NCBI GenBank assembly: GCA_031291905.1
Contig: JARLIC010000029.1
Coordinates: forward strand, 1-62,851
DNA from: Minisyncoccota bacterium
GTDB taxonomy: Bacteria; Patescibacteriota; Minisyncoccia; UBA6257; 2-01-FULL-56-20
Length of the DNA: 62,851 nt
Direction of reading: 5' to 3'
How positions within the stretch are numbered: position 1 is the first letter of the stretch; each line of letters opens with the position of its first letter. Both the position numbers and the translations under genes were made by a program. Positions 36,408 through 61,654 of the stretch are shown here, piece after piece. The notes beneath the pieces were generated by a model. That model saw only the letters and a list, made by a program, of their open reading frames with translations, searched no databases and was not told the origin of the DNA.

Positions 36408-36418
36408 ACTTGTTCATA

Positions 36419-37876: not shown

Positions 37877-37905
37877 GTTTGTATTGTCTTATTATGATAA
37901 CTCAC

Positions 37906-38517: not shown

Positions 38518-38543
38518 TTGAAATCAAATTCTTTTTAGTCTTG

Positions 38544-38616
38544 AGCCACCTCCCGGACTCGGACCGGGGACCTTCGCTTTACAAAAGCGTTGCTCTACCA
38601 ACTGAGCTAAGGTGGC
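38544..38616 (-). tRNA. tRNA-Thr (anticodon TGT)
   Basis: Acceptor GCCACCT/AGGTGGC, anticodon loop TTTGTAA, T arm CCCGG-TCCGAGT-CCGGG (C at position 55). Confidence 0.88.
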
Positions 38617-43608: not shown

Positions 43609-43654
43609 ATTCCTATTCTACCATCAACCGTGGCGTAACCAAAGCCTCCTCCGG

Positions 43655-44113: not shown

Positions 44114-44152
44114 GATATTATTTGAGTATTATTGCGATAATTGGTTACGACA

Positions 44153-44177
44153 CAGCCGCTCTTAGTGGAAGCGGCTG
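44153..44177 (-). terminator. hairpin after the glycosyltransferase gene (no clear U tract)
   Basis: CAGCCGCU-loop-AGCGGCUG on the minus strand. Confidence 0.3.
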
Positions 44178-44197
44178 GGAATGATTGCGAGTAAATA

Positions 44198-44956: not shown

Positions 44957-44963
44957 AGGAGCA

Positions 44964-46910: not shown

Positions 46911-46988
46911 AGAAGATTTAATATGCTCCTATTCTAACAAAAAAAATCCGGTTTGATAAGAGCTTATTAAAAACTCATTAAATCCTGT

Positions 46989-47016
46989 TTGACCTTGATA
47001 GTAGTCAAGCTATCAT
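46989..47016 (+). promoter_or_regulatory. sigma70-like promoter on the strand opposite to the operon (TTGACC-16-TATCAT)
   Basis: -35 at 46989-46994 and -10 at 47011-47016; an ATG follows 6 nt later at 47023. Confidence 0.35.
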
Positions 47017-47022
47017 CAGAAC

Positions 47023-47124
47023 ATGCTCGCGAGTATCCAATCCCGGCTCGGCGTAAACGCAGCCATAAGGCTACAAGGCTGACGGCGGGCATAAAAACTC
47101 ACCCAATGGGGTGGGTTTTTCTTT
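47023..47124 (+). ncRNA. candidate ~100 nt transcript (sRNA or leaderless 19-codon micro-ORF, 47023-47082)
   Basis: Bounded by the promoter above and a terminator whose stem has a G-U pair only on the plus strand. The micro-ORF encodes MLASIQSRLGVNAAIRLQG. Confidence 0.3.
47094..47124 (+). terminator. intrinsic terminator (CUCACCC-AAUG-GGGUGGG-U5)
   Basis: Hairpin plus T run at 47116-47120. On the minus strand the same stem would have a C-A mismatch. Confidence 0.5.
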
Positions 47125-47240
47125 ACCCTTAAAGATACTAAAAAAGTGCATATGTTTCTCGCCAATTCGTCTTACTATCAGCTTGATTATCCCGGTATTA
47201 TCCGCGACAAACAGAAGGATGGTATAAAGAAGAAGATAGG

Positions 47241-47373
47241 TATCGAATAACAAAATGGCTCGGGTTTTTTGAAAGGTGTGTCGGAGGCACGAAGGTGCCG
47301 AGACCCAAGGCGCGAAACCAGCAGGTTTCGATGCCGTCCTTTCAAAAAACCCGAGCCATTTTGTTATTCGATA
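47241..47373 (+). ncRNA. family A hairpin-apex element, copy 4
   Basis: 36 bp perfect arms (47241-47276 and 47338-47373) and core 47277-47337. The right arm covers the secY stop and its last codons. Confidence 0.6.
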
Positions 47374-48635
47374 CCTTCGTACTCGCGAACCGTCAGCTGC
47401 GAATCAACCTGCCTCATCGTCTCAAGCGCGACGGCCACCACGATCAGAAGAGCGGTACCGCTGATGCTGACCACCGTAACGCCGGTAATCGCCTGCACGA
47501 GGGTCGGAAGGATCGCGATAAGCCCGAGAAAGATCGCGCCGAAGAACGTGATACGGTTCATGACCCCTTTGAAGAATATCTCGGTGCTCTCGCCCGGACG
47601 AATGCCCGGCACGAATCCCCCGCTCTGTTGAAGGTTCTTTGCGACCTCCTCCGGATTGAATGTGATCGCGGTATAGAAATAGGTGAAGGCAAACACGAGC
47701 AGAAAGTAGAAGATGCCGTAGTAGAGCTGGTTCGCGACGAATCCCGTAGCGAAGTTATTGATAATCGTGCCCCATTTGACCGAGAAGAGCACGACGATCT
47801 GCGCGATGAACTGCGGAACAAGCATGACCGAGATCGCGAAGATGAGTGGAATCATACCCGCCTGGTTCACTTTGAGCGGAAGATAGCTCTGTGAGCCGCC
47901 GTATATCTTGTTGCCGCGCACGCGTCGCGCATACGCCACCGGGATCTTGCGTTCGCCCTCGTTCAGATAAACGATGCCCGCAATGAGCAGGACGGCCACG
48001 ACGATGAATCCGGCGTATGCGGTGAGCAGTTGTGGCGTGTAGGATGCGACCGCGATACCGAACGTCGAAGGTAACTTGCTGATGATGCCCGCCAGAATGA
48101 TGAGCGAAATACCGTTGCCTACCTTCTCCTCGCTGATAAGCTCACCGAGCCACAGCGCAAGCATGGAGCCGCATGTGATCACAATGACGTTGCGGATGAG
48201 GCTGAACGCATCGGGCTGGGCGATCACGCCCTGCGATATGAGCAGCTTCAGAAAACCGTACGACTCGACGAACGCGAACGGCACCGTGAGCAGGCGCGAA
48301 TACTGGTTGAACTTTGCCTGACCGCGCGCACCTTCCTCGTAGTACATCTCTTTCATCTTCGGGAATATGATCGTCATGAGCTGCATGACGATGGTGGCAG
48401 TGATATACGGACCGACGCCGAGCATCACGACCGAAAGCGTGGAAAGGCCTCCTCCCGAGAAGAAGTTGAAGAACCCGAACAGTTGGTTGGAATTGAAGTA
48501 GTTCTGGAGCCGCACCGCATCGACGCCCGGGATCGGGATCGCCGCAAGCACGCGATAGGCCACCAAAAGCCCGAGGACAATAAGAATCTTATTGCGAAGC
48601 TCCTTTACTTTGAATATTTGCAAAAACCTTTCCAT
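47364..48635 (-). CDS. secY: preprotein translocase subunit SecY
   Basis: 423 aa, 10 TM helices, conserved GVGPYITATIVMQL and plug or hinge regions. Confidence 0.97.
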   Translation of the reverse strand: MERFLQIFKVKELRNKILIVLGLLVAYRVLAAIPIPGVDAVRLQNYFNSNQLFGFFNFFSGGGLSTLSVVMLGVGPYITATIVMQLMTIIFPKMKEMYYEEGARGQAKFNQYSRLLTVPFAFVESYGFLKLLISQGVIAQPDAFSLIRNVIVITCGSMLALWLGELISEEKVGNGISLIILAGIISKLPSTFGIAVASYTPQLLTAYAGFIVVAVLLIAGIVYLNEGERKIPVAYARRVRGNKIYGGSQSYLPLKVNQAGMIPLIFAISVMLVPQFIAQIVVLFSVKWGTIINNFATGFVANQLYYGIFYFLLVFAFTYFYTAITFNPEEVAKNLQQSGGFVPGIRPGESTEIFFKGVMNRITFFGAIFLGLIAILPTLVQAITGVTVVSISGTALLIVVAVALETMRQVDSQLTVREYEGIE

Positions 48636-48653
48636 GATTTTTCTGCTTTGATG

Positions 48654-48714
48654 GTTTTATAGTATCACTTTTGGGGCGATAAATCTTCTCGACCCAAAAG
48701 TGATACTATAAAAC
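48654..48714 (-). terminator. 22 bp perfect palindrome overlapping the rplO stop codon, in the rplO-secY spacer
   Basis: Arms at 48654-48675 and 48693-48714 with a 17 nt loop. The right arm contains the last rplO codons and TAG. Confidence 0.5.
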
Positions 48715-49146
48715 ACTCCCGCCCGCCTTTTCGATCTTCGCCTTTGCGCCCGCGGAAACCTGGAATCCCTTCACGGCGACCGGGAATGCGATCTCGCCCG
48801 TGCCCAGGATCTTCACGATGCCCTTATAATCCTTTCTGATGAGCTTTGCCGACTGCAGAAGCGCGCGGTCGACGGCCAACGGCGTGCCGGCCTTCGCCTG
48901 CGGTGCGAACTTCTTCGAGATCGTGCCGAGATTGAACACTTCGGGATTCTCATCCTTCTGTTTGTTGCGGAAACCGCGCAACTTCGGAAGCTTCAGAATG
49001 ATGTCGCGCTCCGCCGGACGGATCCTGTGTCCGGAACGTGAACGCTGACCTTTCTGGCCGCGTCCGGAGTAACTGCCGCGCTTGCCGCTGCGCCCGATGC
49101 GCTGGGTCTTGCGGGTCCTCAGGGTTGTAAGTTCGTGGAGTTTCAT
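48706..49146 (-). CDS. rplO: 50S ribosomal protein L15
   Basis: MKLHEL..RKTQRIGRSGKRGSYSGRGQKGQRSRSG, typical L15 N-terminus. Confidence 0.95.
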   Translation of the reverse strand: MKLHELTTLRTRKTQRIGRSGKRGSYSGRGQKGQRSRSGHRIRPAERDIILKLPKLRGFRNKQKDENPEVFNLGTISKKFAPQAKAGTPLAVDRALLQSAKLIRKDYKGIVKILGTGEIAFPVAVKGFQVSAGAKAKIEKAGGSVL

Positions 49147-49191
49147 GTTTTTTTCTTTATTCTTCTTTCCTTCTTCCCGTTAATTCTTCCT

Positions 49192-49722
49192 CTATGCTTT
49201 GAGCTTCTTCAGTGCCTCGATGGTCGCCTTCGCGTTGGTCAGCTTGTTTGGCGTGCGGCCGAGCACTTTCGCGGTGGCATCTTTGATGCCCGCGAACGCA
49301 AGCACGAAACGCACCGCACCGCCCGCGCGGAGACCGTGCCCCTTGCTCGCCGGTTTAATGAGTACCTGCGCGGCGCTGTATTTCGCATCGACCTGATGCG
49401 CGATCGTGCGGCCGTCCTTCAGACTCACCGTGATAACGTTCTTCTTTGCATCGGCCTTCGCCTTCGCGACCGCCTGCTGCACATCGAGACCCTTTGCGAC
49501 GCCGATGCCGACCCTGCCCTTCTCGTCGCCGATCACGATCGTGACACGGAAACGGAAACGCTTGCCTCCTGCGACCACGCGCGTGACGCGGCGGTTGTCG
49601 AGCACGCGCTCCTTGAACTCGTCATGGGAGACCTGCGGCTGGCGCGTATTCCTCCTGTAGGTATTGGATGAAGTGATCGGTGGCATGATGTTATATCTTA
49701 AGACCTCCTTTTTTTGCTCCAT
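49192..49722 (-). CDS. rpsE: 30S ribosomal protein S5
   Basis: RVTRVVAGGKRFRFRVTIVIGD core. Start is uncertain (ATG at 49722 or 49686; the ORF-track TTG is at 49728). Confidence 0.92.
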   Translation of the reverse strand: MEQKKEVLRYNIMPPITSSNTYRRNTRQPQVSHDEFKERVLDNRRVTRVVAGGKRFRFRVTIVIGDEKGRVGIGVAKGLDVQQAVAKAKADAKKNVITVSLKDGRTIAHQVDAKYSAAQVLIKPASKGHGLRAGGAVRFVLAFAGIKDATAKVLGRTPNKLTNAKATIEALKKLKA

Positions 49723-50092
49723 CGACAAAACTCTTCACCCGTCCGTGGAACTTGTAGGACCGGCGGTCGAGCACCGCGGAGGCGATTCCCTTCTCTGTCG
49801 CCTTCTTTCCGATCGTCTCTCCCACCATGAAGGAATCCTGGGTCTTTGTGGTCGTTTTTTTCGCAGCGACCTTCTTCCCTTCCTCCTTCTTCCCCTTCTT
49901 GCCTTCCTTTGCGGGGGCGCTCGACGCCGAGATCAGCGTGTGCCCTTTGGTGTCATCGATGAGCTGTGCGTAAAAATACCGGTTGCTCCGGCTCACGGCA
50001 AGGCGCGGCCGTTCCGCGGTGCCGATGATGGTCGCGCGCACGCGGGCCGTGCGACGCATCCTTCTTTTGTTCAATTTCTTTGCTGCTTTCAT
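49691..50092 (-). CDS. rplR: 50S ribosomal protein L18
   Basis: RPRLAVSRSNRYFYAQLIDD motif, plus an internal K/E-rich insertion. Confidence 0.93.
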   Translation of the reverse strand: MKAAKKLNKRRMRRTARVRATIIGTAERPRLAVSRSNRYFYAQLIDDTKGHTLISASSAPAKEGKKGKKEEGKKVAAKKTTTKTQDSFMVGETIGKKATEKGIASAVLDRRSYKFHGRVKSFVDGAKKGGLKI

Positions 50093-50112
50093 GATAGTAG
50101 ATATAGTAGCGG

Positions 50113-50655
50113 TTACGAGCCGGTAGCACCAGCTTTCTTGCCGACCTTCCTGCGGATGACCTCGCCGCGGTAATGGATGCCTTTGCCTTTGTAGGGTTCC
50201 GGCTTCTTGAACGCGCGGATCTCCGCGGCCACCTGGCCCACTTCCTCCTTGTTGATACCCGAGATCTTTATCGTGTTCTTCTCCACCGCCACGGTGACGT
50301 GGTCCGGGATCGCCATGCGCACCGGGAGCGCATACCCCAGGAAGAGCACAAGCTCCTTCCCCTCGAGGACCGCGCGGTAACCGACGCCTTCGATCTCGAG
50401 GATCTTCTCGAATCCCTTCGTGACGCCCTCGATCGCGTTGCGCGCGAGCGCCCAGATAGTCCCGTGGATTGCGGTATCGTCCACTTTGCTTCCGGCCTTC
50501 ACCCAGAGGTTGTTGCCCTCCACCTCGATCGCGACCTCCGAAGGGAACGGCAGGGTGATCTCACCCTTGGGCCCCTTCACCCGAAGCATGCCCTCGTCAA
50601 TGGTGACTGAGGCGCCTTCTTCGATAGCGACCGGCTTTTTGATCAATCGGCTCAT
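50113..50655 (-). CDS. rplF: 50S ribosomal protein L6
   Basis: MSRLIKKPVAIEEGASV..., two L6 repeats, C-terminal PEPYKGKGIHY. Confidence 0.95.
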   Translation of the reverse strand: MSRLIKKPVAIEEGASVTIDEGMLRVKGPKGEITLPFPSEVAIEVEGNNLWVKAGSKVDDTAIHGTIWALARNAIEGVTKGFEKILEIEGVGYRAVLEGKELVLFLGYALPVRMAIPDHVTVAVEKNTIKISGINKEEVGQVAAEIRAFKKPEPYKGKGIHYRGEVIRRKVGKKAGATGS

Positions 50656-50671
50656 AATAGTGTTCGTAGTG

Positions 50672-51052
50672 TTACCAGAGTTCAAAGAGGTATTCGCCTC
50701 CAACCTTGTTTTTTCTCGCCTCTTTCCCGGTCATGATACCCTGTGACGTCGAAAGCATGGAGATGCCATGGCCCGAGCGTACGGTGTTCAGACTCCGGTA
50801 ATCGATATAGGTATGCCTGCTCGGCTTGCTCTTGATGGAAAAATCGTTCACCACCGGCACCTTTCCCCCGTGCATCACCCGCACCGCGATGATGTTCTTC
50901 TTGCCCACCGTCTCCTTTTCGACAGCCTTCACGTAGCCGTTCTCCGCGAGCTTTTTGAGGATCGCAAAATCCATCTTCGAATACGGGAAGGTGATCTTGT
51001 CCTTTTTCGCGCGGACCGCGTTCTTCAGTTCGGAAAGGATGTTGTAATGCAT
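50672..51052 (-). CDS. rpsH: 30S ribosomal protein S8
   Basis: 126 aa, L.N...A....V..P.S pattern, C-terminal GGEYLFELW. Confidence 0.95.
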   Translation of the reverse strand: MHYNILSELKNAVRAKKDKITFPYSKMDFAILKKLAENGYVKAVEKETVGKKNIIAVRVMHGGKVPVVNDFSIKSKPSRHTYIDYRSLNTVRSGHGISMLSTSQGIMTGKEARKNKVGGEYLFELW

Positions 51053-51059
51053 TATCGTG

Positions 51060-51245
51060 TTACCATGATGCTTTTTTCACGCCCGGGATCTGCTGATTGG
51101 TGGCCATCTCGCGGAAACAGATACGGCAAAGGCCGAAGTCCCTCATGAACCCGCGCTTGCGTCCGCAGCGGAAACAGCGGCGCACGATGCGGCTCGAGAA
51201 CTTGGGGCGCTTTTTCGATCGCGCGATGACGGATTCTTTTGCCAT
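51060..51245 (-). CDS. rpsN: 30S ribosomal protein S14 type Z (zinc-binding)
   Basis: 61 aa with [20 protein letters not shown]. Confidence 0.95.
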
Positions 51246-51246
51246 A

Positions 51247-51807
51247 TTATTTGGTCTTTCTTGGTTTCGTCCTTGCCTTTCCCTTCTTGCCGTCCTCTTT
51301 CTTCAAGGGGACGCCGAGCGCGGTGAATGCCTCGAACGACTTGTCGTGGTTCCGTATCTTCGGGACCATACTTGCGCCGAGCGAAAACGAGATCGGCGAC
51401 TGCTCCGGCTTGATCTCCGGGAACACGAGTTGGTCGCGCACGCCGATGTTCAGCGTACCGCCCTGGTCGATCACCGACCGCTCAAGTCCGCTGAAGTCGC
51501 GTACGCGGGGCAACACTATTGTAATCAATCTCTCGAAAAAATCAACCATTTTGCGGCCGCGAAGCGTCACGCGGAGCCCGACGATCTGCCCTTCGCGGAT
51601 CTTGAACCCGGCGATGGACTCCTTGGCGCGGCGGATCTGCGGCTGCTGACCGGTGACGGCGGCAATGTCGCGCATCACCTGCGGAAGGACCTTCTCTTCG
51701 AAGTTCGGCTGCTGGCTCAGGCGTCCGACGCCCGCGTCAATGACGGCCTTCTCGAGAAGTGCGCGGATGGCTGCTTTGTTCGTATTTGTTTTGGTTGCGG
51801 TTGCCAT
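51247..51807 (-). CDS. rplE: 50S ribosomal protein L5
   Basis: [19 protein letters not shown] and FPEI motifs. The ATG at 51807 lies just after the rplX stop. Confidence 0.93.
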
Positions 51808-51814
51808 GACTATA

Positions 51815-52120
51815 TTAAATGGTGGATTTGCATTTCTTGCAGTAACGGACCTTCCTCTTCCCCTCGATGCGGCCACCGACGCGCGTGGGCGCCTTGCAGC
51901 TGGGGCAGATGAGCATGACCTTCGAGGCCGGCATCGGACGGGAGACCTCGATGAGCTGTCCCTTTTCGCCCTGCTTCCGCGGACGCGAATGCTTTTTGAA
52001 GAGATTCAACCCGTCGACGGCGATCTTTCCCGTCGCAGTGAAGACCTCCAACACCGCGCCGGTCTTGCCGCGATCCTTTCCCGAAAGCACTTTTACATTG
52101 TCGCCCTTCTTGATATTCAT
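51815..52120 (-). CDS. rplX: 50S ribosomal protein L24
   Basis: MNIKKGDNVKVLSGKDRGKTG KOW motif. Confidence 0.95.
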   Translation of the reverse strand: MNIKKGDNVKVLSGKDRGKTGAVLEVFTATGKIAVDGLNLFKKHSRPRKQGEKGQLIEVSRPMPASKVMLICPSCKAPTRVGGRIEGKRKVRYCKKCKSTI

Positions 52121-52125
52121 GGAAG

Positions 52126-52494
52126 TTATACTATTTCCTCCGCCATCGTCATAAGTTTCTCGAATCCCTTCTCTTTAAGCTCGCGCGGGAGCGGGCCGAA
52201 GATACGCGTCGCCACCGGCTCCTTTTTTGCGTCGACAAGGATCACCGCATTCTCGTCAAAACGGACATAGGAACCGTCCTTGCGGCGCAACGCGTTCTTG
52301 GAGCGGATGACCATCACCTTCACGACATCCTTCTTCTTGACCGCTTTGCGCGGTTCCGCGGACTGCACGGAAGCGACCACGATATCGCCGACCCCGGCAT
52401 AGCGCCGACCGCTGCCTCCGAGCACGCGGAAACAACGCACGACCTTCGCGCCGCTGTTGTCCGCAACTTTCAATACTGAACGTTCCTGGATCAT
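52126..52494 (-). CDS. rplN: 50S ribosomal protein L14
   Basis: MIQERSVLKVADNSGAK... Confidence 0.97.
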   Translation of the reverse strand: MIQERSVLKVADNSGAKVVRCFRVLGGSGRRYAGVGDIVVASVQSAEPRKAVKKKDVVKVMVIRSKNALRRKDGSYVRFDENAVILVDAKKEPVATRIFGPLPRELKEKGFEKLMTMAEEIV

Positions 52495-52512
52495 GATAAA
52501 AGAATAAGGATG

Positions 52513-52767
52513 TTAGGAGACTTTGCCGATTATTTTCCAACGCTTCTCCCGTGACATCGGGCGCGCCTCTTCGATGGTCACCTTGTCGCCGGTCTTGTAC
52601 TCGTTGTTCTCGTCGTGCGCTTTGAACTTCGTGGTGACGTGGTAGTACTTCAAATACTTCGGATGCTTCTTGAGGCGCTGTACCGCAACCACGCGCGTCT
52701 TCGTCATCTTGTCGGAGACGACCGTTCCTACGATCTTCCTTTTTTTGTTTTCCTGGGATTTTTCCAT
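52513..52767 (-). CDS. rpsQ: 30S ribosomal protein S17
   Basis: GTVVSDKMTKTRVVAV..HPKY.K.....KFKAHDE pattern. Confidence 0.95.
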   Translation of the reverse strand: MEKSQENKKRKIVGTVVSDKMTKTRVVAVQRLKKHPKYLKYYHVTTKFKAHDENNEYKTGDKVTIEEARPMSREKRWKIIGKVS

Positions 52768-52778
52768 GGTGATTGAGT

Positions 52779-52814
52779 CTTGGTCCTTTTTCGGGATTTA
52801 GCTGCTATTGGGAA
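52779..52814 (-). repeat. copy of the recurrent ~32 nt motif (TTCCCAATAGCAGCTAAATCCCGAAAAAGGACCAAG)
   Basis: Spans the last rpmC codons plus TAG and the rpmC-rpsQ spacer. Confidence 0.45.
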
Positions 52815-53011
52815 CTTGTCATTTGCTCCTTGATAAAGGTCTTCGCCCGCGCAATACGCTTGCGCACCTCGCGAAGCTCGGCGACATTCTTCACCTTACC
52901 CGCCGCAAGGTCAAAACGCAACGCACGAAGCCGCTCCGTACTCTCGCCCGCGATGCGCTCGAGCTCCATCGGGGACTTATGCTTCATCTCTTGTATATCT
53001 TTCTTCTTCAT
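52805..53011 (-). CDS. rpmC: 50S ribosomal protein L29
   Basis: 68 aa with ELRALRFDLAAGKVKN-like helix pair. Confidence 0.92.
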   Translation of the reverse strand: MKKKDIQEMKHKSPMELERIAGESTERLRALRFDLAAGKVKNVAELREVRKRIARAKTFIKEQMTSSQ

Positions 53012-53016
53012 TTGAA

Positions 53017-53427
53017 TTATTTGACGATGATCCTTGTTTTCACCGGCAATTTGAACGATGCATGACGCAAGGCCTCTTTTGCCTTCACGGCGTCAACGCC
53101 GTCGATCTCGAAAAGCACGCGGCCCGGCTTCACCGGGAACACATAGTGGTCCACCGAACCCTTTCCGCCTCCGAGCGTCTTCTCGGGAGCCTGCAAGGTT
53201 ATCGGCTTGTCGGGGAAGATACGGATCCAAAGGCGTCCTTCCCTCTTCAGGAAGTTCGTGATCGTCTTGCGCGCCGCTTCGATCTGGCGGGAGTTCACCC
53301 ACGCCGACTCGGTCGACTTCAGGCCGAACTGGCCATAGCTCAGCTCAAGCCCGCGCGTTTCAACGGTGCGCGAACGCGAACGTCCTTTCTGCCACTTGCG
53401 ATGTTTTACTTTTTTGGGGAGAAGCAT
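53017..53427 (-). CDS. rplP: 50S ribosomal protein L16
   Basis: MLLPKKVKHRKWQKGR... Confidence 0.97.
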   Translation of the reverse strand: MLLPKKVKHRKWQKGRSRSRTVETRGLELSYGQFGLKSTESAWVNSRQIEAARKTITNFLKREGRLWIRIFPDKPITLQAPEKTLGGGKGSVDHYVFPVKPGRVLFEIDGVDAVKAKEALRHASFKLPVKTRIIVK

Positions 53428-53439
53428 ATCGGTGGAATA

Positions 53440-54165
53440 TTATTCGCGCGGACGGCGATTATTTACGGCATTGCGCGGTTCGTTCTCGCGCGGCTTGTCG
53501 TCGCCCTCCTTCTTTTCGAAGATCTCTCCCTTGTAGATCCACACCCGGATGCCAATTGTACCATAGGTCGTGAACGCTGTCGAGGTTCCGTAATCGATGT
53601 CCGCGCGAAGCGTCGCGAGCGGAAGGGATCCGTTCGAAAGATGCTCGCGGCGGGCGATCTCGTTGCCATCCAACCGGCCGGCGAGCGCGACCTTGGCGCC
53701 CTTCACGTCGCGGTTCTGCATGATCTGGTCGAGATACTTCTTCATAGTGCGGCGGAAGCGGATGCGTTTTTCGAGGTCCCACGCGATCTGCTGGGCGACA
53801 TACTTTGAGGACACTTCCGTGCGCTTAAGCTCTTCCACGTTGAGGCTGAGCGCGATCTTGCTCTCGGTCTTGCGAACCTTCTTAAGCGCAGCAACGATGT
53901 CCTTATTGAGATCCTCCATGCCCTTTCCGCCGCGACCGATGATGAGCCCCGGACGCGCCGCGCGGATGAAGACGCGGAGATTGCCCTGCGTGCGCTCGAT
54001 CTCGATGGCCGCAACGCCGGCAAGCGCGATCTTCTTGTTGATCGTGTTGCGGATCGCCTCGTCCTCTTCGAGGAACTGCGGATAGCCGCCCTTAATGAAC
54101 CAGCGCACCGGCCAGCCCTTCGATATCCCCAACCTATATGAATTTGGATTGATCTTTTGTCCCAT
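53440..54165 (-). CDS. rpsC: 30S ribosomal protein S3
   Basis: MGQKINPNSYRLGI..., KH domain, charged C-terminal tail. Confidence 0.97.
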   Translation of the reverse strand: MGQKINPNSYRLGISKGWPVRWFIKGGYPQFLEEDEAIRNTINKKIALAGVAAIEIERTQGNLRVFIRAARPGLIIGRGGKGMEDLNKDIVAALKKVRKTESKIALSLNVEELKRTEVSSKYVAQQIAWDLEKRIRFRRTMKKYLDQIMQNRDVKGAKVALAGRLDGNEIARREHLSNGSLPLATLRADIDYGTSTAFTTYGTIGIRVWIYKGEIFEKKEGDDKPRENEPRNAVNNRRPRE

Positions 54166-54173
54166 GGTATTCG

Positions 54174-54704
54174 TTATTCGCCCATTCCGGCTTTACGGCT
54201 GAATGTGCGCTTCCAGAAGTTGTTCTTGCCGTCCTTCTTGTTCGGCTCGCCGCCTTCCTGCTCCGGCTTTACAGAACGTTTCTTCGCGGTGCGCGTCTTC
54301 GGATCTTCCGTCGGCGCCGGTTTCTTCTTTTTCGGAGGCACGATGGTGAAGCGGGACTTCAATTTCTCGTTCACGCCGAGCACGAGCGTCACGTGGCTCA
54401 TCTTCTTCTGTATCGGCGATGCGCTTCCGCGGGCGCGGGGCAGCATGCGCTTCAGCATCGGTCCGCCGTCAACGCGAACGTTTACGACATACAGATGATG
54501 AAGTTCCGCCAGCCCGTTATTTTTAGCATTTGCGACCGCCGAACGCAAGAGTTTGAGGAGCGGCTTCGAAGGACGGCGCGTCTGCATGAGAAGCTGCGCC
54601 TCCGCCTCGTTCGCCGGAAGTCCTTTGATGAGGTCTCCAACGCTCCGCACTTTGCGCGGCGCCATCCTGAGGTAACTGAGTTTTGCGGTATATTCCTTTT
54701 CCAT
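54174..54704 (-). CDS. rplV: 50S ribosomal protein L22 (with long basic C-terminal extension)
   Basis: LRMAPRKVRSVGDLIKG core, followed by about 60 extra K/P/E-rich residues. Confidence 0.93.
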   Translation of the reverse strand: MEKEYTAKLSYLRMAPRKVRSVGDLIKGLPANEAEAQLLMQTRRPSKPLLKLLRSAVANAKNNGLAELHHLYVVNVRVDGGPMLKRMLPRARGSASPIQKKMSHVTLVLGVNEKLKSRFTIVPPKKKKPAPTEDPKTRTAKKRSVKPEQEGGEPNKKDGKNNFWKRTFSRKAGMGE

Positions 54705-54728
54705 GGGATTTGGCTGGTTTGGAGCTTG

Positions 54729-55070
54729 TTATTTCTTCTTCGCCGGTGCGGCCTTTGCGGCCTGCGCCTGGCTCTTTTGGGCATCCGCGGTCTTTATCTC
54801 GAGCTCCTTCTGCATCTTGCCTCCGTGGCGCACGAACTTCTTCGTCGGCGAAAACTCGCCAAGGCGATGGCCGACCATCTCCTCCGTCACGCGCACCTCG
54901 ATGAACGCCTTCCCGTTGTGCACGCCGAAGATATGTCCCACCATTTCCGGTGCGATCTCCGATGCGCGCGACCAGGTCTTCACCACAACGCCGCTCCCGG
55001 TCTGGAGCACCGATATCTTCTTCAATAATTTCGGATCGACGTACGGTCCTTTTTTGAGTGAACGTGACAT
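54729..55070 (-). CDS. rpsS: 30S ribosomal protein S19 (with Ala/Lys-rich C-terminal extension)
   Basis: [18 protein letters not shown]...GHRLGEF core. Confidence 0.96.
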
Positions 55071-55075
55071 GGTGG

Positions 55076-55924
55076 TTATTTATTGTTGGCGTTTCGCTTG
55101 CTGACCCGGCGCTTCACGATGAACTTGTTCGATTTCTTCTTCTTGTTGCGCGTCTTGTGTCCGCCGGTCACCTTACCCCACATCGTCTTCGGCTTGCGGG
55201 TGCCGCGCGGCTGGGCGCCTTCACCTCCGCCGTACGGGTGGTCAACCGGGTTCATTGCACTGCCGCGCACCGTCGGGCGGATACCCAACCAGCGCGAGCG
55301 TCCCGCCTTTCCGAAATTCACGAGGCTCCACTCGGCGTTCGAGACCTGTCCGAGCGATGCAAGGCACGTCCACTGCACGCGGCGCACCTCACCGGAGTTC
55401 AGCTTGAGATCGGTGTAACCGTCCGCGTTCGCGAGCACTTCCGCATACAATCCCGCGGAGCGCGCGAGCTGGCCGCCGCGTCCCGGCTTCATCTCGATAT
55501 TATGGACCTGCGTACCGACGGAAACGTTCTTGAGCTGCATGCGATTGCCGGGCCTCAACGGCGCGGACTCGGCGGTGATGATCTCGTCGCCAACCGAAAG
55601 TTTTTCCGGAGCCAAAATGTAAGAAAGCGTACCGTCACCGTACTGCACCTTGGCGATGAATGCCGTGCGATACGGATCGTATTCCAACGATTGCACGACC
55701 GCTTTTTCGTTCATGCGGTTCTGTTTGAAATCGATGATGCGGTAAAGCTTCTTATTCCCGCCGCCCTGATGACGCGTAGTGATGCGGCCCTGCGAGTTCC
55801 TGCCGGCGTGGGAGGTAAGGCGCTTCAAAAGCGGCTTATGAGGCTTGACGCCCTTGGTAAGCGAGCTGTAGTCCGAAGAGGTCATATTGCGCCGCGAAGC
55901 GCTTGTGGGCTTGAAGGATTTCAT
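55076..55924 (-). CDS. rplB: 50S ribosomal protein L2
   Basis: 282 aa with [16 protein letters not shown] and [13 protein letters not shown] motifs. Confidence 0.97.
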
Positions 55925-55928
55925 GGAA

Positions 55929-56207
55929 TTAGTTCACGTCTATTTTCTGGCCGTCCTTAATGGTGACGATCGCTTTGCGATATCCTTCCTGAACACCTTT
56001 CCGGTTGCCGCCGAAGCGTTTGTGCTTCTCGGGGCGGTTCACCATGTTCACCGCGATCACATCCACTTTATAGAGCGCATGGATCGCCTTCTTCACTTCC
56101 GGCTTTGCCGCATCACGGTGCACCAGGAACACGTACTGGTTTGCCAGTGCGCCGGCGGTCGCCTTCTCCGTGATCCACGGTTTTTTGATGATCGAGGTGT
56201 TTACCAT
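55929..56207 (-). CDS. rplW: 50S ribosomal protein L23
   Basis: 92 aa with ITEKA......YVFLV....K.EVK.A.. pattern. Confidence 0.93.
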   Translation of the reverse strand: MVNTSIIKKPWITEKATAGALANQYVFLVHRDAAKPEVKKAIHALYKVDVIAVNMVNRPEKHKRFGGNRKGVQEGYRKAIVTIKDGQKIDVN

Positions 56208-56212
56208 GTCGG

Positions 56213-56857
56213 TTATATCTTATAGTGCTTTTCGATCGACGCGACCACCTCTTTATCGATAAAAAGGTTCTTGTAGTTCAACACATCGTAAATATTCAAA
56301 GAATCCGCCGAAAGGACCTTCGTCTTTTCAAGATTCGATGCCGCACGGAAGAGGTTCTTGTTCGCGGTATCCGAAACGAGCAGCACATCGTAGCGCTTGC
56401 CGCCCTTCCGGAGCGTAATGGAGTTCGAAAGTGCCGTCGCGAGCTCTTTGGTCTTCGGCTTCTCGATCACGAGCGTATCGAATATCTTCACTTCGCCGTC
56501 CTTCACCTTCCGCGAAAGGGCCGCGAAAAGCGCGACGCGCTTCATCTTCTTGTTCACTTTCTGCGAATAGTCCTTGTCGTTGCGGGGACCATGGGATTTG
56601 CCACCACCGACCCAGATCGGAGAACGAGTCGAACCGTGCCGCGCGCGGCCGGTACCCTTCTGACGCCACGGTTTTTTGCCGCCGCCACGAACTTCGCTGC
56701 GATCCATAACGTGGGCCCACGGATCGCGAGCATTCGCCAATTGTGCATCGAGCACCTGCTTTACGATCGTCGGATTCCATTTCGTACCGAAAACACCCGC
56801 CGGCAGATCGATCGATCCCACCACCTCGTTCTTTAAATTGTAGACGTCGGTCTTCAT
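56213..56857 (-). CDS. rplD: 50S ribosomal protein L4
   Basis: RGGGKKPWRQKGTGRARHGSTRSPIWVGGG motif. Confidence 0.96.
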   Translation of the reverse strand: MKTDVYNLKNEVVGSIDLPAGVFGTKWNPTIVKQVLDAQLANARDPWAHVMDRSEVRGGGKKPWRQKGTGRARHGSTRSPIWVGGGKSHGPRNDKDYSQKVNKKMKRVALFAALSRKVKDGEVKIFDTLVIEKPKTKELATALSNSITLRKGGKRYDVLLVSDTANKNLFRAASNLEKTKVLSADSLNIYDVLNYKNLFIDKEVVASIEKHYKI

Positions 56858-56861
56858 ATCG

Positions 56862-57425
56862 TTATTTCACGTTTGCGATCTCGATCAGGCCGCCGCGGCC
56901 GCCCGGAACCGCTCCCTTCAGGAATATCAAATTGTTCTCTTTGTCGATGGCCGCCACCACAAGGTTCTTGATGGTGATGCGCTCGACACCCATGTGGCCC
57001 GCCATGCGACGGCCCGGAACGACGCGCTGGAATGCGGTCGAGCCGATGGAGCCCGGAGCGCGATGACGATTCTTCTGGCCGTGGGTCTTCGGACCTCCGG
57101 CGAAATTATGGCGTTTTACGACACCCTGGAATCCGCGACCCTTCATGATGCCGCTCACGCGGACCTTGTCCCCCTCTTTAAATGAGTCGACCGAGATCTC
57201 GTTGTCGACCGCCATGGTCGACATATCGATCGGCTGCGACTTGCGATTGGGGAATTCGCGCTTCTTCTTACCCAAAGATACCTGGACGGCCTCGTAGCCA
57301 TCGCGTTCGGAGGTACGCACAATAGAGACCTTGTTAGGCTCTGCGTGGATAACCGTAACCGGAACGACTTTGCCGTCTTTCCAGATCTGGGTCATTTTCA
57401 GTTTTTTGCCGAGTATAAAGGACAT
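56862..57425 (-). CDS. rplC: 50S ribosomal protein L3 (short form, 187 aa)
   Basis: GKKLKMTQIW...GIMKGRGFQGVVKRHNFAGGPKTHG motif. Confidence 0.96.
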   Translation of the reverse strand: MSFILGKKLKMTQIWKDGKVVPVTVIHAEPNKVSIVRTSERDGYEAVQVSLGKKKREFPNRKSQPIDMSTMAVDNEISVDSFKEGDKVRVSGIMKGRGFQGVVKRHNFAGGPKTHGQKNRHRAPGSIGSTAFQRVVPGRRMAGHMGVERITIKNLVVAAIDKENNLIFLKGAVPGGRGGLIEIANVK

Positions 57426-57486
57426 TGCTTTGAATTAATGTCTTGGGCTTGGACAGGGGCCGCCGCCGGCCATGGTCCTCAAGCTC

Positions 57487-57512
57487 AAAAAAAATCGGGG
57501 AATATTCCCGGA
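57487..57512 (-). terminator. intrinsic terminator (attenuator) inside the rplC leader
   Basis: CCGGGAA-UA-UUCCCCG followed by U8 (57487-57494), 61 nt upstream of the rplC ATG. Confidence 0.6.
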
Positions 57513-57675
57513 TGTTTTATAAACCACTATCGAAGCCGCCTCTTAAGGAGACAGCGATTTTCGCCCCAAAGAGAGGCGGGCATCCTCGCCCTCGAGAAGG
57601 GCAGGTGCCAAGGAGAAACGATTCCCGTTTTCCCACAAAAAATAGTGATTCGCATAAACGTCCGAGGAAACCTTG
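57487..57675 (-). promoter_or_regulatory. ~190 nt structured leader RNA of the rplC operon (candidate r-protein autoregulatory attenuator)
   Basis: Lies between a consensus promoter and the attenuator. The 5' ~28 nt can pair with the 3' ~27 nt, including the 5' half of the terminator stem. Confidence 0.5.
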
Positions 57676-57681
57676 ATAGAG

Positions 57682-57709
57682 ATTATAGCAAAAGGGGTTC
57701 CAATGTCAA
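57682..57709 (-). promoter_or_regulatory. consensus sigma70-type promoter (TTGACA-16-TATAAT)
   Basis: -35 at 57704-57709 and -10 at 57682-57687 on the minus strand; both hexamers match the consensus perfectly. Confidence 0.65.
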
Positions 57710-57795: not shown

Positions 57796-58290
57796 TCACC
57801 CTACAAGCCGAACGGACGATTTGGGAGATATCGCCCTCCATTTTTCCCCGCCCACGGGCAGTTTTCCGGAGAGTTCGCCGGCGAACGAAGGCTGCTTGGA
57901 AGATGGCGCCGAGAACGCAACGACGATTTTATGGGCATACTCGCTGCCGTCGTCATCCCGCGCGGTCACTCCCGAAATGGAAAGGTTGTAGTGCGCGGTG
58001 GCGGTCGCCATTTTCCGGTAACGGATGCCCCCGCGTTCCGTCTTCCACAAAATATATATCGTGCTGACCCCGCGTACCCTGGAGATCGCCTTGACCGCCG
58101 CAACATCCCTACGACAACTTGGATGCTCCGGAAAATGAAGCTCTCCGTCGATCCGTGCCGTACGATCGAGATGCCTCAGCCGTTCCTTCACGTCCTGGAG
58201 CCCTATTTCCAAACTCGTTCCGTGCGCCGTCATGACCCATCCTCCTTGCGATATTCCTACGGAATAATTATACAACATCGTCGCCTTCAT
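57796..58290 (-). CDS. hypothetical protein (divergent from the large secreted protein gene)
   Basis: It is the only ORF with its own terminator in this gap. Start is uncertain (58290, 58278 or 58344). No family recognised. Confidence 0.4.
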   Translation of the reverse strand: MKATMLYNYSVGISQGGWVMTAHGTSLEIGLQDVKERLRHLDRTARIDGELHFPEHPSCRRDVAAVKAISRVRGVSTIYILWKTERGGIRYRKMATATAHYNLSISGVTARDDDGSEYAHKIVVAFSAPSSKQPSFAGELSGKLPVGGEKWRAISPKSSVRLVG

Positions 58291-58336
58291 CTTTCCTTGA
58301 GGTTTTCTTTCGGGAGCGCGTGCTAGCATATCGCCC

Positions 58337-61300
58337 ATGACCACACAAAAAATATTGCGTTATGCTTTCTGTTTCTCCCTGATTCTCTTCGGTGTTTTTG
58401 CCGCATATCCGGCCCATGCTTCGATCATCATCGCCCAGCAGACGGACGGCTCGCTGAGCGGGAGCACAGTACTGCGGTGTAATACTTGCGCGAACATCAC
58501 GGCAGGATCGCAGCCGTTCATCGCGTCCATTTCCGGCGCGCTCGGTTCGATCGCGGTGTTCACGTCAGGCTTCGGCACGATGAGCCGGAATGCCGACACA
58601 AACGATTGCTACATGACGGTCTCCGATCAGGATACCGGTGCGCTACTCGCGCGATCGGACAATGGGTTCAATGGATCCCGTTGCGGCGGCGACCTCGTGT
58701 TCACATTCAAAGATTCCCGCCCGTTCCTACACGAGGGAAACCATTACCGATGGGATTTCATCTTCGGCGGATTGAATTGGACCAGTATCGCGTTTGCGGG
58801 AAGCGCCGACGATACCGCGGGCGGATCGTTCAGTGTGCCGCCGCTCGTAAATGCCGAGTTTAAAGTATTTGCCGCGCTCGAACCTCCGGAGTCCCTCGTT
58901 CAATTCCTCGCGGACGGAGCAACAACACTCGCCCATGGTGGAATCTCCGGTTCCTCCGCGGTGACGCTCGGTGCCACTCTTTCTTCTTTACTCCCTGACC
59001 TTCTTCATCTGCAGATAGAGCTGAAACCTTCCTATGTGGCGTTTACGGGAGAGCCCAATATGGAAAGCCAACTTGTTTCGTCCGGATCGACGACGCAGAT
59101 CGGTTCCGCGGGCCTCCCGAATGGAGGCTATCACTGGCAGGCACGCGCCGCCGATGCCGACGGAAATACTTCCCTGTGGCAGGCGAGTGACGATTCCGCT
59201 GGCGGCCCCGACTTCGTTGTTTACGATCCGGCGCAAGGGATCATCCTCCAGGACATGACCACGATATACGGCAGAAGTGCGCAGCCGGTCGCATGTATGG
59301 AGTACGAAACGATGCTTTCCTGCGCGCTCTTCCCCTTTCCGGTCGATTATAGGGTCGGCACGCCGTTCACCATCTCAAAGATCATTTTTAACTGGAGCAA
59401 TGGCGGTTATAACAACTGCGACGATGTCGGACATTATGGCGCGGTCATCACTGCGTCCGCAGCCACGGACGACGCCTCCTTGATCCTTGCAACGTCTACG
59501 AACACCGCGTACCTCGGGTGTGCCGGCCCTACCGGACAAGGCGGCGCGGCCGAGCTGGACTTCAACGGAGAGACCATACCCGCAAACTTCCACTTCTCGC
59601 TTGCCGCGTTCGATAAAGCATTACAGGGAGGATCTGCGGTTTCCGTTTCCCGCGTCACCATTTATGGCACACCTTCCGCGCCCGCCGAGACCCAGCGGGA
59701 ACCGGTAGTGATCGTGCCGGGAATGCTCGGATCGCGGCTCGACAAGGTCTCGGACGGACAAGAAGTGTGGCCCGACGCGAATGCCATGCTCCTTTCCGGA
59801 TCGGATTCCTATCTGGACGATCTTTCTCTTTCCCGCTCCGGCGCGCAGATCTCCGGAATGGAGATGACCCCCTCGGACATCATCCGCACCGTCACCACTT
59901 CCATTCCTTTTTCCGGCCAGGATTTCTACGGCCCACTCCTCGATTCCCTTGTATCTATGGGATACCGGGAAGGGACCGACCTGTTCGTCGCTCCTTACGA
60001 CTGGCGCCTCGACATCGCAAGTTCCGCCGCATCCATCGATCCCGTCATACGGAACGCGATCGCACATTCTCCGGACGGCAAGATCGACATTGTCGCACAC
60101 AGCATGGGCGGCCTTGTGATCAGGGACTATCTGTCGCACACAGCCGACACTTCATTCGTGAACAAGCTTGTCCTTGCGGGCATACCCCAGCTCGGCGCGC
60201 CGCAGATGTTCAAGGCGCTCGAATATGGCGACGACTTGGGCTTCCATGTCGGTCCGTTCGAACTGCTGGATCCCGCCGAAGTGAAATCGATATCCCAGAA
60301 CATGCCGGCGGCATACGAACTCCTTCCTTCGCGCCGCTACGATACCGTGCAAGGAGGCTATGTGACCGACAACAGGAACGGAGACCATACCGTGCTGGAC
60401 TTCGGCCATATCAACGAGTTCCTTCTCTCTTCCTCCACCGATCCCCGTAACCCCATGCTCCTTGCCCAAGCCGATCTTTTCCATGTCACGCAGGACGGTG
60501 CGGCAACGAACGCGCCGGAGGTCTACAACATCGTCGGGTGCCAGAATCCATCGACGGCGTACGGGTTCGTGCTTGGTGACGGCGGCGATGCCGACATCGT
60601 TCGCGGCGCCGGCGACGGGACCGTACCGGTCTTCTCCGCAATGAATCTTGCGAACGATTACCGGAATTATTTCTCCTTATATTCCGAAAACGGCGTCGAC
60701 CACGCGGGCCTTGTCCGCGACCGTCGGCCGATCGCGCTTATCGACGCGATCCTCGGCAACGCCACTTCAACGCTCGACCTCAACCCTCTCGGCATATCCA
60801 CCTCGACACAGGACTGCCTTCAGGGACGATCCCAATTTCACGGGGCGACGACGATCGAAATAAGCGCTTACGGCGCTATCGCCCTCAATGTATACGATTC
60901 GGAAGGTCGCCACAGCGGCCCCTCCGACGCGAGTGAAGACGGTACATCAGACCTCCAGATACCGGGAAGCGATTATCAGACCATCGGCGAGAACAGCTTT
61001 ATACTCCTTCCCGCTTCCGACACCTATCGTATTGTCGGCGTCGCAAAGCACCCGAGCTTTTTCACTATGAAGATAAAATCCTACGGCGATACGGCGGACA
61101 TTCTCGGCACGACAAGTTATGTGCAGGTACCGCTCGCCTCATCGTCGACCATTGCAACGCTCACGGTATCAAGTTCGACCCTTTCGCCCGCCATTTCGCT
61201 GACCGAAGGTGATGAAGGCAATGCGACGTCCACCATTCCGCCGACCGCGGTCCTTTCCCCCACGGACGGCGCCGACGTGACGCCTCCCGTCATCACCATG

Positions 61301-61654
61301 CCGGAAATCGCGCCTGTCGTATCTTTCGGCACGCCGATAACCTTCGCTTTTTCCGCAACCGACGATCTTTCCGGCATTGCATCGATCGCCGCAACCCTGG
61401 ATGGAACGACTATCGAAAATGGTACAATCTTGAAAGATATTCCCGCAGGGACGCATACGTTCCGGCTCGAGGCCGTCGACAGCGCGGGGAATCCGCGCAT
61501 CGGAGCGATCGTGTTCCAAGTGACACCAATGACGCCCGCGACGACCACGGGCACGGGCACGGGCGGTAGTTCCGTCATTCAGGTTCCCGTTCCACCGGCA
61601 AGCTCCTCTTCCGCGACCACGACGCCCCGCTGCAAAAAGAAAACATCTCCCTAA
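58337..61654 (+). CDS. large secreted multidomain protein with central alpha/beta-hydrolase (LCAT/PGAP1-like lipase) domain and Ig-like domains
   Basis: Signal peptide ...FAAYPAHA, VVIVPGMLGSRL and IDIVAHSMGGLVIRDY (GXSXG nucleophile elbow), and C-terminal Ig-like repeats (FAFSATDDLSGIASI, HTFRLEAVDSAGN). Confidence 0.75.
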   Translation: MTTQKILRYAFCFSLILFGVFAAYPAHASIIIAQQTDGSLSGSTVLRCNTCANITAGSQPFIASISGALGSIAVFTSGFGTMSRNADTNDCYMTVSDQDTGALLARSDNGFNGSRCGGDLVFTFKDSRPFLHEGNHYRWDFIFGGLNWTSIAFAGSADDTAGGSFSVPPLVNAEFKVFAALEPPESLVQFLADGATTLAHGGISGSSAVTLGATLSSLLPDLLHLQIELKPSYVAFTGEPNMESQLVSSGSTTQIGSAGLPNGGYHWQARAADADGNTSLWQASDDSAGGPDFVVYDPAQGIILQDMTTIYGRSAQPVACMEYETMLSCALFPFPVDYRVGTPFTISKIIFNWSNGGYNNCDDVGHYGAVITASAATDDASLILATSTNTAYLGCAGPTGQGGAAELDFNGETIPANFHFSLAAFDKALQGGSAVSVSRVTIYGTPSAPAETQREPVVIVPGMLGSRLDKVSDGQEVWPDANAMLLSGSDSYLDDLSLSRSGAQISGMEMTPSDIIRTVTTSIPFSGQDFYGPLLDSLVSMGYREGTDLFVAPYDWRLDIASSAASIDPVIRNAIAHSPDGKIDIVAHSMGGLVIRDYLSHTADTSFVNKLVLAGIPQLGAPQMFKALEYGDDLGFHVGPFELLDPAEVKSISQNMPAAYELLPSRRYDTVQGGYVTDNRNGDHTVLDFGHINEFLLSSSTDPRNPMLLAQADLFHVTQDGAATNAPEVYNIVGCQNPSTAYGFVLGDGGDADIVRGAGDGTVPVFSAMNLANDYRNYFSLYSENGVDHAGLVRDRRPIALIDAILGNATSTLDLNPLGISTSTQDCLQGRSQFHGATTIEISAYGAIALNVYDSEGRHSGPSDASEDGTSDLQIPGSDYQTIGENSFILLPASDTYRIVGVAKHPSFFTMKIKSYGDTADILGTTSYVQVPLASSSTIATLTVSSSTLSPAISLTEGDEGNATSTIPPTAVLSPTDGADVTPPVITMPEIAPVVSFGTPITFAFSATDDLSGIASIAATLDGTTIENGTILKDIPAGTHTFRLEAVDSAGNPRIGAIVFQVTPMTPATTTGTGTGGSSVIQVPVPPASSSSATTTPRCKKKTSP

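Follow-up and report, generated by a model that had tools for sequence, protein, structure and literature searches.

How bacteria keep the synthesis of their ribosomal proteins in balance has been worked out chiefly in E. coli and a few other model bacteria, where individual ribosomal proteins bind the leaders of their own mRNAs. To our knowledge, almost nothing is known about this balance in the Candidate Phyla Radiation (CPR), whose members have small genomes and unusual ribosomes and include no cultured models. The stretch of DNA analysed here (62,851 nucleotides, in the following called the window) was derived from a bioreactor metagenome, and its host is an uncultured bacterium of the Paceibacteria (CPR). 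It raises the question of how an operon that begins with rplC, the gene of ribosomal protein L3, is regulated. A reading made from the sequence alone had proposed that a promoter on the minus strand is followed by a leader RNA in which a terminator competes with an antiterminator pairing upstream of rplC.

Promoter, leader RNA and rplC operon of the window

Coordinates of the element, its promoter and the operon refer to the minus strand throughout. The sigma-70-type promoter is located at 57709–57682 and consists of TTGACA (57709–57704), a 16-nt spacer and TATAAT (57687–57682). It achieved a score of 12 out of 12, in line with the perfect promoter described by the sequence-only reading, and it additionally carries a TG extension at 57690–57689, which gives a TG-extended −10 element at 57690–57682. 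Besides this site no promoter-like sequence was detected between positions 56800 and 58400. The core of the leader RNA begins at the predicted transcription start (about 57675), reaches to the last U of the tract at 57487 and comprises 189 nt; the family covariance model R2 (see below) assigned it 88.4 bits. The ATG of rplC (57425) lies 61 nt past the last U of the terminator tract. Both the estimated leader length of about 190 nt and the proposed 61-nt gap were thus reproduced.

The rplC gene (56862–57425, 187 amino acids) is the first gene of the operon, followed downstream by rplD, rplW, rplB and the remaining genes. The identities of L3, L4, L23 and L2 were confirmed using Pfam. A homologue of S10 (rpsJ) was not found anywhere in the window, so the earlier statement that the operon lacks S10 is correct. 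In relatives rpsJ is a separate gene located 79 to about 2,500 nt upstream. The ribosomal protein genes of the window are not preceded by Shine-Dalgarno sequences.

Transcription was followed in five metatranscriptome runs of the same study, for which the data consisted of assembled contigs and not of read ends. The leader is transcribed. It was covered by RNA contigs in four of the five runs at a depth of 5.5–10.7, and these contigs span 57429–57664, 57469–57650, 57497–57653 and 57497–57664, respectively. At the 5' side, the limits of these contigs match the predicted transcription start. Two contigs stop at 57497, at the terminator, and two continue for 18 and 58 nt; such ends hint at partial termination at the leader terminator. 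Pieces of the ribosomal protein genes were scattered, with a depth of 2.3–7.0, and rplC was covered in one run only.

Folding of the 189-nt leader yielded a minimum free energy (MFE) of −73 kcal/mol with a z-score of −4.2, and none of 200 shuffled sequences folded as well. The MFE fold is a long closing helix, P1, which encloses four hairpins. In P1, nucleotides 7–35 of the RNA (57669–57641) pair with nucleotides 145–171 (57531–57505). The 5' strand, the putative antiterminator, holds the AUG of a leader open reading frame (ORF) and is backed by the MFE fold, by covariation (A9, helices 1–3) and by partner-swap tests. The 3' part of the 3' strand (57513–57506) doubles as the 5' half of an intrinsic terminator at 57513–57487, which is built from a hairpin (57513–57494) and a U8 tract (57494–57487). 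With this segment shared between them, P1 and the terminator are mutually exclusive. This exclusivity had been claimed from the sequence, and the closing helix indeed emerged as the MFE structure.

The terminator itself had been described as strong. It is real and has the layout of an intrinsic terminator, a G+C-rich hairpin with a U8 tract immediately behind it. The hairpin (AUC-C-GGGA / AUAU / UCCC-C-GAU), however, consists of 7 bp with a C-C mismatch and is worth about −7 kcal/mol, so that "strong" was an overstatement; the terminator of the window copy is weaker than those of its relatives.

Within P1, hairpin P2 (GGGAAAACG / CGUUUCUCC) occupies 57634–57611. Its stem sequence is conserved, and its helices 4 and 5 are 88–96% paired. 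Both P2 and the leader ORF had been overlooked in the first reading. Hairpin P3 (57609–57579) corresponds to the internal hairpin GGCACCUGCCC...GGGCGAGGAUGCC of that reading, and in its helix 6 both sides have changed in all six pairs. A further pairing proposed there, CCGCCUCU...AGAGGCGG, can form, but the MFE fold prefers two separate hairpins at 57578–57562 and 57555–57535 (together 57578–57535), which are copy-specific and missing from most homologues. Covariation is uninformative for this segment because it is specific to the window copy. Two more hairpins follow the leader core. One lies past the terminator (57488–57443) and is found at the same place in relatives with a variable sequence. 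The other is a small hairpin at the start of rplC (57442–57421), in which GACAUU (57442–57437) pairs with AAUGUC (57426–57421), so that the stem takes in the rplC start codon. Its loop motif, AUUCAAAGC, was also seen at 16 of 32 related genome loci, where the stems that carry it covary.

Extent of the leader family and covariation of its two folds

A search with the L3 protein among species-representative genomes yielded 80 Paceibacteria/Parcubacteria loci, about 30 of which have the leader sequence before rplC. With two relatives as seed, a covariance model detected a single copy at each locus and a single one in the window. Independently of gene context, a DNA pattern derived from the conserved 5' end was run over metagenome contigs and gave 62 loci. 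At 36 of these, L3 starts 109–281 nt after the start of the 5' motif, and two more (L111 and L132) are real copies on truncated contigs. The other 24 were discarded as chance matches having no promoter, P2, P3 or terminator. The refined model R2 finally recovered 71 copies (61 distinct), one per locus, from Paceibacteria genomes and metagenomes; more distant loci contained no copy detectable by this model.

Every one of the 69 copies with usable context (33 from genomes, 36 from metagenomes) lies directly before rplC and on the same strand, the distance from the start of the 5' motif to the rplC start codon being 109–281 nt in all of them. A TG-extended sigma-70 promoter was present in 60 of 60 distinct copies, with an exact TTGACA in 53. 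The terminator stem ends at most 15 nt before the rplC ATG in 12 of the 59 distinct copies for which this distance could be measured. Since these 12 copies leave no room for a separate promoter, rplC must be transcribed through the element. At least five U residues within the 8 nt after the terminator stem were counted in 40 of 60 distinct copies. In 20 of the 60 the hairpin is followed by an interrupted U tract (AAUUAAUUUUU), and these copies may terminate inefficiently. Judged by these sequence comparisons, the element is a conserved and so far undescribed leader family of the Paceibacteria, which comprises the promoter and the 5' leader of an operon led by rplC.

Searches against known RNA families fit the label "undescribed" that had been given to the leader. 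A cmscan of the whole window against Rfam 15 returned five tRNAs only. When the leader was searched, both at the gathering scores and at E ≤ 10, only chance-level small RNA matches driven by the terminator were obtained, and 15 related loci produced no Rfam matches. The leader did not match the covariance models of 6S RNA, SRP RNA, tmRNA or RNase P, nor any ribosomal protein leader or riboswitch of Rfam. A 6S or SRP RNA, suggested by the long closing helix, was ruled out by the model search and by the strict cis position of the element. A literature search turned up no paper that describes a leader of rplC in CPR bacteria; the closest published counterparts are the S10 leaders of E. coli and Firmicutes and an L4 candidate preceding rplC in Archaeoglobi (PMC7247131). 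Mimicry of rRNA was examined by blastn-short against the E. coli rrnH operon, the only rRNA compared, and gave chance 9–15-mers only. A boxA/Nus element was dropped for this leader family; a likeness to boxA was seen only in an unrelated "group 2" leader.

Alignment by MAFFT and RNAalifold mis-registered the 3' strand and recovered P2 only. This approach was replaced by the covariance models R1 and R2 and by partner-swap tests. In the model alignment of P1, P2 and P3 from 61 distinct sequences, 88.8% of the cells were paired and 26 of 35 pairs had changed on both sides. The covariation amounted to 0.338, compared to 0.168 ± 0.006 for shuffled alignments, of which 0 out of 500 reached 0.338; it did not exceed 0.085 when the partners were slid by 1–3 columns. 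Alignment-free partner-swap tests were added since the model alignment had been fitted to the structure. P1 strands combined with their own partners gave a mean of −24.3 kcal/mol versus −20.8 kcal/mol with swapped partners (0 of 10,000 permutations). The corresponding values for the terminator halves were −12.2 and −9.5 kcal/mol (0 of 10,000 permutations). A column-wise count of terminator pairs on the model alignment is invalid because the 3' half was aligned by sequence alone, and loop-anchored constructs were therefore used. In these, 82.6% of the cells were paired, with a covariation of 0.599 versus 0.190 (0 of 500).

Coupled changes are also apparent by eye: a 5' GGAAG occurs with CUUCC, GGAG with CUCC and GGACG with CGUCC. 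In one homologue (L032) the 5' strand of P1 and both halves of the terminator have all changed together. An alternative pairing of the 3' half of P3 with the 5' half of the terminator was rejected as not conserved across subfamilies. Two conserved and mutually exclusive folds, P1 and the terminator, are thus supported by compensatory change in 61 distinct homologues. Together with the position before rplC in 69 of 69 copies, these changes support the earlier view that the element acts in cis on the rplC operon, as a leader in which terminator and antiterminator compete.

Conservation of the leader ORF

Of 61 distinct copies, 60 have the AUG in the 5' strand of P1, embedded in a near-invariant UUUAUGC. 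In this region U, G and C stay unchanged even where the opposite bases vary or no longer pair (helix 2). In most copies the encoded peptide has the form M-[PQRH]-I-x-T ... [GE]-[KR]-R-x-[SP]-F-x-L ... P-x-stop and a length of 14–32 residues; in relatives the segment [GE]-[KR]-R-x-[SP]-F-x-L is encoded by the P2 region. Grouped by the spacing between the AUG and P2, 47 sequences form nine length classes (24, 27, 30, 36, 39, 45, 48, 66 and 69 nt), all of them multiples of three. True exceptions are the window copy, L014 and L036. By our own arithmetic, in which 12 length classes count as independent, such phasing would arise by chance with a probability of roughly 0.004. Compensated +1/−1 indels distinguish L084 from L105 and L001 from L010; they scramble the middle of the peptide, and the frame is restored before P2.

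The end of the ORF is placed with similar regularity. In 52 of 61 distinct copies the first in-frame stop codon is found within or next to the P3 loop. Altogether 57 stop triplets occur at P3 loops, and 52 of these share the frame of the AUG, compared to an expectation of about one third. Seven distinct copies contain an early stop. The length of the ORF is 12–42 codons in frame 0, versus 1–76 in the other two frames. No NCBIfam match was obtained for the leader peptides, and a run of regulatory codons matching the controlled pathway was not seen in them.

The comparison of copies thus reveals a leader ORF that is conserved as a reading frame, in its start, frame and stop. Part of the peptide conservation may nevertheless reflect RNA constraint because the ORF overlaps nucleotides of P1, P2 and P3. 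The leader cannot be regarded as simply non-coding, given this short ORF in the family and a 42-codon ORF in the window. As the genes of the host have no Shine-Dalgarno sequences, the potential of the leader AUG for initiation cannot be judged from sequence. For the same reason, namely that the ribosomal protein genes of the window go without one, the assignment of GGAG/GGAAG before the leader AUG, or of the 3' half of the terminator, as a Shine-Dalgarno sequence was dropped.

The ORF of the window copy (57527–57655) is atypical. It runs over 42 codons from an ATG at 57655–57653 to a UAG at 57529–57527, which lies inside the 3' strand of P1. Relative to the family it is shifted by +1, caused by a one-nucleotide difference in a U6 run, and the P3 loop of this copy has no stop codon. 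The leader sequence of the window was identical in four independent DNA assemblies (60–95x depth) and in the RNA contigs. Consequently, the frameshift is not an assembly error. In this variant a ribosome terminating at the UAG would mask the 3' strand of the antiterminator directly.

A proposed ribosome-mediated attenuator and its alternatives

The architecture, conservation and position of the rplC leader, as read from the sequences, support an attenuator and mark it as a lineage-specific regulator. The conserved ORF makes the ribosome the leading candidate for the effector and points to ribosome-mediated attenuation, instead of or besides protein binding of the L4 type. With moderate confidence, we regard the leader as a ribosome-mediated transcription attenuator that operates through its leader ORF. 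In the MFE folds of 65 distinct leaders the terminator appeared in 8 when the RNA was free, versus 60 when the AUG ± 15 nt was blocked in silico, a footprint which spans essentially the whole 5' strand of P1. Forcing the terminator to form cost a median of 4.1 kcal/mol relative to the MFE. Because P1 is more stable in the free RNA, an untouched leader should let RNA polymerase reach rplC. A ribosome loading on the ORF start or translating it would hold the 5' strand of P1; the terminator would then form and transcription would stop before rplC. In an untranslated leader P1 would form and the operon would be transcribed. The same outcome is predicted when initiation is blocked by a ribosome queued behind another one stalled at the end of the ORF. 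With its conserved C-terminus and a stop codon placed in a hairpin loop, the ORF may also contribute to the signal through stalling or through the kinetics of termination. In this way the output of ribosomal protein mRNA would be tied to spare translational capacity. Translation of the ORF, regulated termination and the direction of the response are what we infer from these features. The window copy, with neither the family frame nor the stop in the P3 loop, the interrupted U tracts of 20 of 60 copies and the lack of an evident run of regulatory codons speak against this mechanism.

Short leader ORFs of this kind are familiar from other operons. The stop codon of trpL lies in a hairpin loop, as does that of the leader ORF in most copies of the rplC leader. 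The classical leader-peptide attenuators trp, his and pheST (modelled in PMC1183508) share with the rplC leader a short ORF and mutually exclusive terminator and antiterminator folds, between which the position of the ribosome is predicted to choose. They differ in controlling amino acid biosynthesis or a tRNA synthetase and not ribosomal protein genes. Unlike them, the rplC leader contains no run of cognate regulatory codons, has its start codon within the antiterminator strand and belongs to a host that appears to initiate without Shine-Dalgarno sequences. Upstream ORFs that sense stalled ribosomes before resistance genes, as in bmrCD (PMC4191407), msrD (PMC10314930) and mef/mel (PMC4335068), are likewise coupled to a terminator/antiterminator switch, and the conserved C-terminal part of the rplC leader peptide hints at a comparable stalling. 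In contrast to these systems, the genes downstream of the rplC leader encode core ribosomal proteins with no known link to antibiotics, and the untranslated leader is predicted to default to read-through.

The leader could alternatively be an attenuator that responds to a ribosomal protein, a reading that we consider the foremost alternative, plausible but less likely, and that has its model in E. coli. There the S10 leader mediates NusA-dependent transcription attenuation by L4 together with translational control. Transferred to the rplC leader, an excess of L4 (or of L3 or another protein of the operon) would bind, for instance at the P2 stem or at the invariant 5' CAAGGUUUCCUCGG, and favour the terminator, with the ORF features being secondary. 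As in E. coli, a structured leader of about 170–190 nt heads an operon of L3, L4, L23, L2 and further genes, the first gene is closely preceded by an intrinsic terminator, and there is perhaps a second, translational module at the start codon. The element stands at the head of the rplC-rplD operon and keeps its terminator/antiterminator logic, and sequence conservation in the P2 stem and in the 14 nt at the 5' end exceeds the needs of pairing. Moreover, the second conserved hairpin between the terminator and rplC, at or near the start codon (which in the window forms part of its stem), has an invariant AUUCAAAG loop and resembles a translational operator. The rplC leader nevertheless differs from that of S10 in preceding rplC and not rpsJ, in having an explicit long antiterminator helix and in carrying a conserved ORF which is absent from the E. 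coli leader. The earlier remark that it does not resemble the S10 leader held, as neither a sequence or structure match nor an Rfam ribosomal protein leader match was found.

Precedents for regulation by L4 are the S10 leader of E. coli and an L4 candidate located before rplC in Archaeoglobi (PMC7247131), a study in which both S10 and L4 leaders are mentioned. This candidate, reported with other lineage-specific ribosomal protein leaders by Eckert and Weinberg (2020; PMC7247131), resembles the rplC leader as a lineage-restricted structured element before rplC, rplD, rplW and rplB that was found by comparative genomics. It belongs to another domain of life and has another structure, the candidates of that study have no described leader ORF, and the rplC leader for its part has no match to the covariance models of Rfam 15. 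A protein-responsive attenuator leaves the conservation of the frame, the compensated frameshifts and the in-frame stop in the P3 loop unexplained. It also finds no backing in a similarity of the leader to rRNA, E. coli rRNA being the only one compared, or in a match to an Rfam ribosomal protein leader.

The conserved start, frame, stop and C-terminal motif ([GE][KR]R.[SP]F.L..P.-stop) could also indicate a small functional peptide of 14–32 amino acids which is co-transcribed ahead of rplC and whose translation or stability is merely tuned by the folds. This is improbable: among close relatives the central codons are translated in differing frames, the ORF ends early in seven distinct copies, the window copy is frameshifted and no NCBIfam match exists, and the exclusive terminator and antiterminator would go unexplained. 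Just as doubtful is a constitutive structured 5' untranslated region that serves the stability or processing of the mRNA, with the hairpin and U tract acting as a weak, unregulated pause site or terminator. The weak terminator of the window (−7 kcal/mol), the interrupted U tract of 20 of 60 copies and the RNA contigs that read through would suit such a region. It does not account for two exclusive pairings that are both kept by compensatory change, including the triple change in L032, for the near-isoenergetic states or for a conserved ORF overlapping the switch strand.

A riboswitch for a small molecule or an ion, seated on the three-way junction of P1, P2 and P3, appears very improbable. A multi-helix junction followed by a terminator as expression platform is its typical layout, but an Rfam riboswitch match is lacking, the conservation resides in the stems and the 5' end and not in junction nucleotides, extra hairpins are freely inserted in the junction, and the ORF signals would not be expected. 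The most improbable of the alternatives is an independent small RNA gene (6S-like or of another type) that happens to adjoin rplC: it was raised by the sequence-only reading and would profit from the element's own consensus promoter and terminator and from leader contigs that assembled more consistently than rplC, but it is contradicted by the strict cis position on the same strand in 69 of 69 copies, by the lack of another rplC promoter in the window, by terminator stems at most 15 nt from the ATG in 12 distinct copies, in which rplC must be read through the element, and by the lack of any match to 6S, SRP or other Rfam families.

All leaders of ribosomal protein operons known to us act by binding of a ribosomal protein and not through leader peptides, which is a further point against the ribosome-mediated mechanism. 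The rplC operon, the main ribosomal protein operon of its host, may be the first of its kind under a leader-peptide attenuator, which we put forward tentatively. Its mini-ORF would sense free or working ribosomes in the Shine-Dalgarno-poor Paceibacteria, possibly by means of an arrest-type C-terminal peptide whose stop codon is placed in a hairpin loop, and would control transcription of the operon directly; the feedback would then act on global translational capacity and not on one free ribosomal protein. The conserved terminator/antiterminator leader with its mini-ORF before rplC represents a concrete and testable regulatory element of the CPR, a compact switch which is amenable to coupled in vitro systems. 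Even with a ribosomal protein as ligand it would constitute a new family of ribosomal protein leaders with strong covariation support, suitable for Rfam. If the ribosome is the effector, the rplC leader would stand for a new logic in the control of ribosomal proteins, in which translation itself is sensed.

Genes and start regions around the leader

Upstream of the rplC leader lies a 182-aa ORF (57796-58344, minus strand) without a Pfam domain. RNA contigs from this ORF (58007-58236, depth up to 28.5) were deeper than any others in the region, and the ORF is followed by a strong terminator of its own (57780-57759, minus strand). Divergent from it, a 1,105-aa protein with a signal-like N-terminus is encoded on the plus strand (58337-61654). 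This protein contains an LCAT-like alpha/beta-hydrolase (lipase) domain and shows a weak, below-cutoff match to a bacterial Ig-like domain. Five clustered tRNA genes are located at 35352-38616 on both strands.

Start regions were examined for the 20 genes that make up the r-protein/secY cluster (42139-57425, minus strand). In nearly all of them the stretch 4-12 nt upstream of the start codon lacks a Shine-Dalgarno sequence of the GGAG type; the regions before the genes are A/U-rich instead.

The gene rpsJ (S10/NusE) is uncoupled from rplC in this lineage. Among L001-L080, the Paceibacteria/Parcubacteria rplC loci, rpsJ was located 79 to about 2,500 nt upstream of rplC, and the two are often separated by other genes or by a terminator belonging to rpsJ. 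In the window, rpsJ was not found in the 5.4 kb upstream of rplC.

A different leader in more distant Paceibacteria

In more distant Paceibacteria another conserved leader occupies the same position upstream of rplC. It was detected in 26 of the 47 loci outside the leader family, including L030, L034, L035, L038, L040-L042, L045 and L046, and matched no Rfam family. Its elements follow in the order promoter, (U/G)CUCUUUAAUGG, ...CAUAAGGAUAGCC... and terminator. The 5' motif resembles boxA, with 8-9 of 11 positions matching the consensus GYTCTTTAANA (PMC5725501). An AUG within this motif opens ORFs of 4-22 codons (MD[VAI]...).

Structures in the leader and before rplC

Within the window leader, pairing of CCGCCUCU (5') with AGAGGCGG (3') could give a long-range helix of 8 bp (57535-57578, minus strand), which would replace the two local hairpins of the minimum free energy structure. 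Covariation cannot test this pairing because the segment is specific to the window.

One subfamily of the leader possesses an additional conserved domain between the hairpin and rplC, of the form ACUGGAUUCCGC...GGCGGACGAUCAAGAAAAUG and most commonly 65 nt long. It is carried by L001-L007, L010, L013, L014, L016, L017, L019 and many metagenome loci. In this subfamily AAUUAAUUUUU follows the hairpin in place of a clean U tract.

A hairpin with the conserved 8-nt loop AUUCAAAG was located at 57421-57442 (minus strand) in the window. In L001-L007, L010 and L019 the loop lies about 30-45 nt upstream of rplC. The motif was not found in E. coli rRNA. The stems under the loop covary (GUGG/CCAC, GCUC/GAGC, GGGG/CCCC, ACUC/GAGU), and in the window and its closest relatives the rplC start codon itself is inside the stem (GACAU/AUGUC). 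A possible role for this hairpin is that of a translational operator or of an element for initiation.
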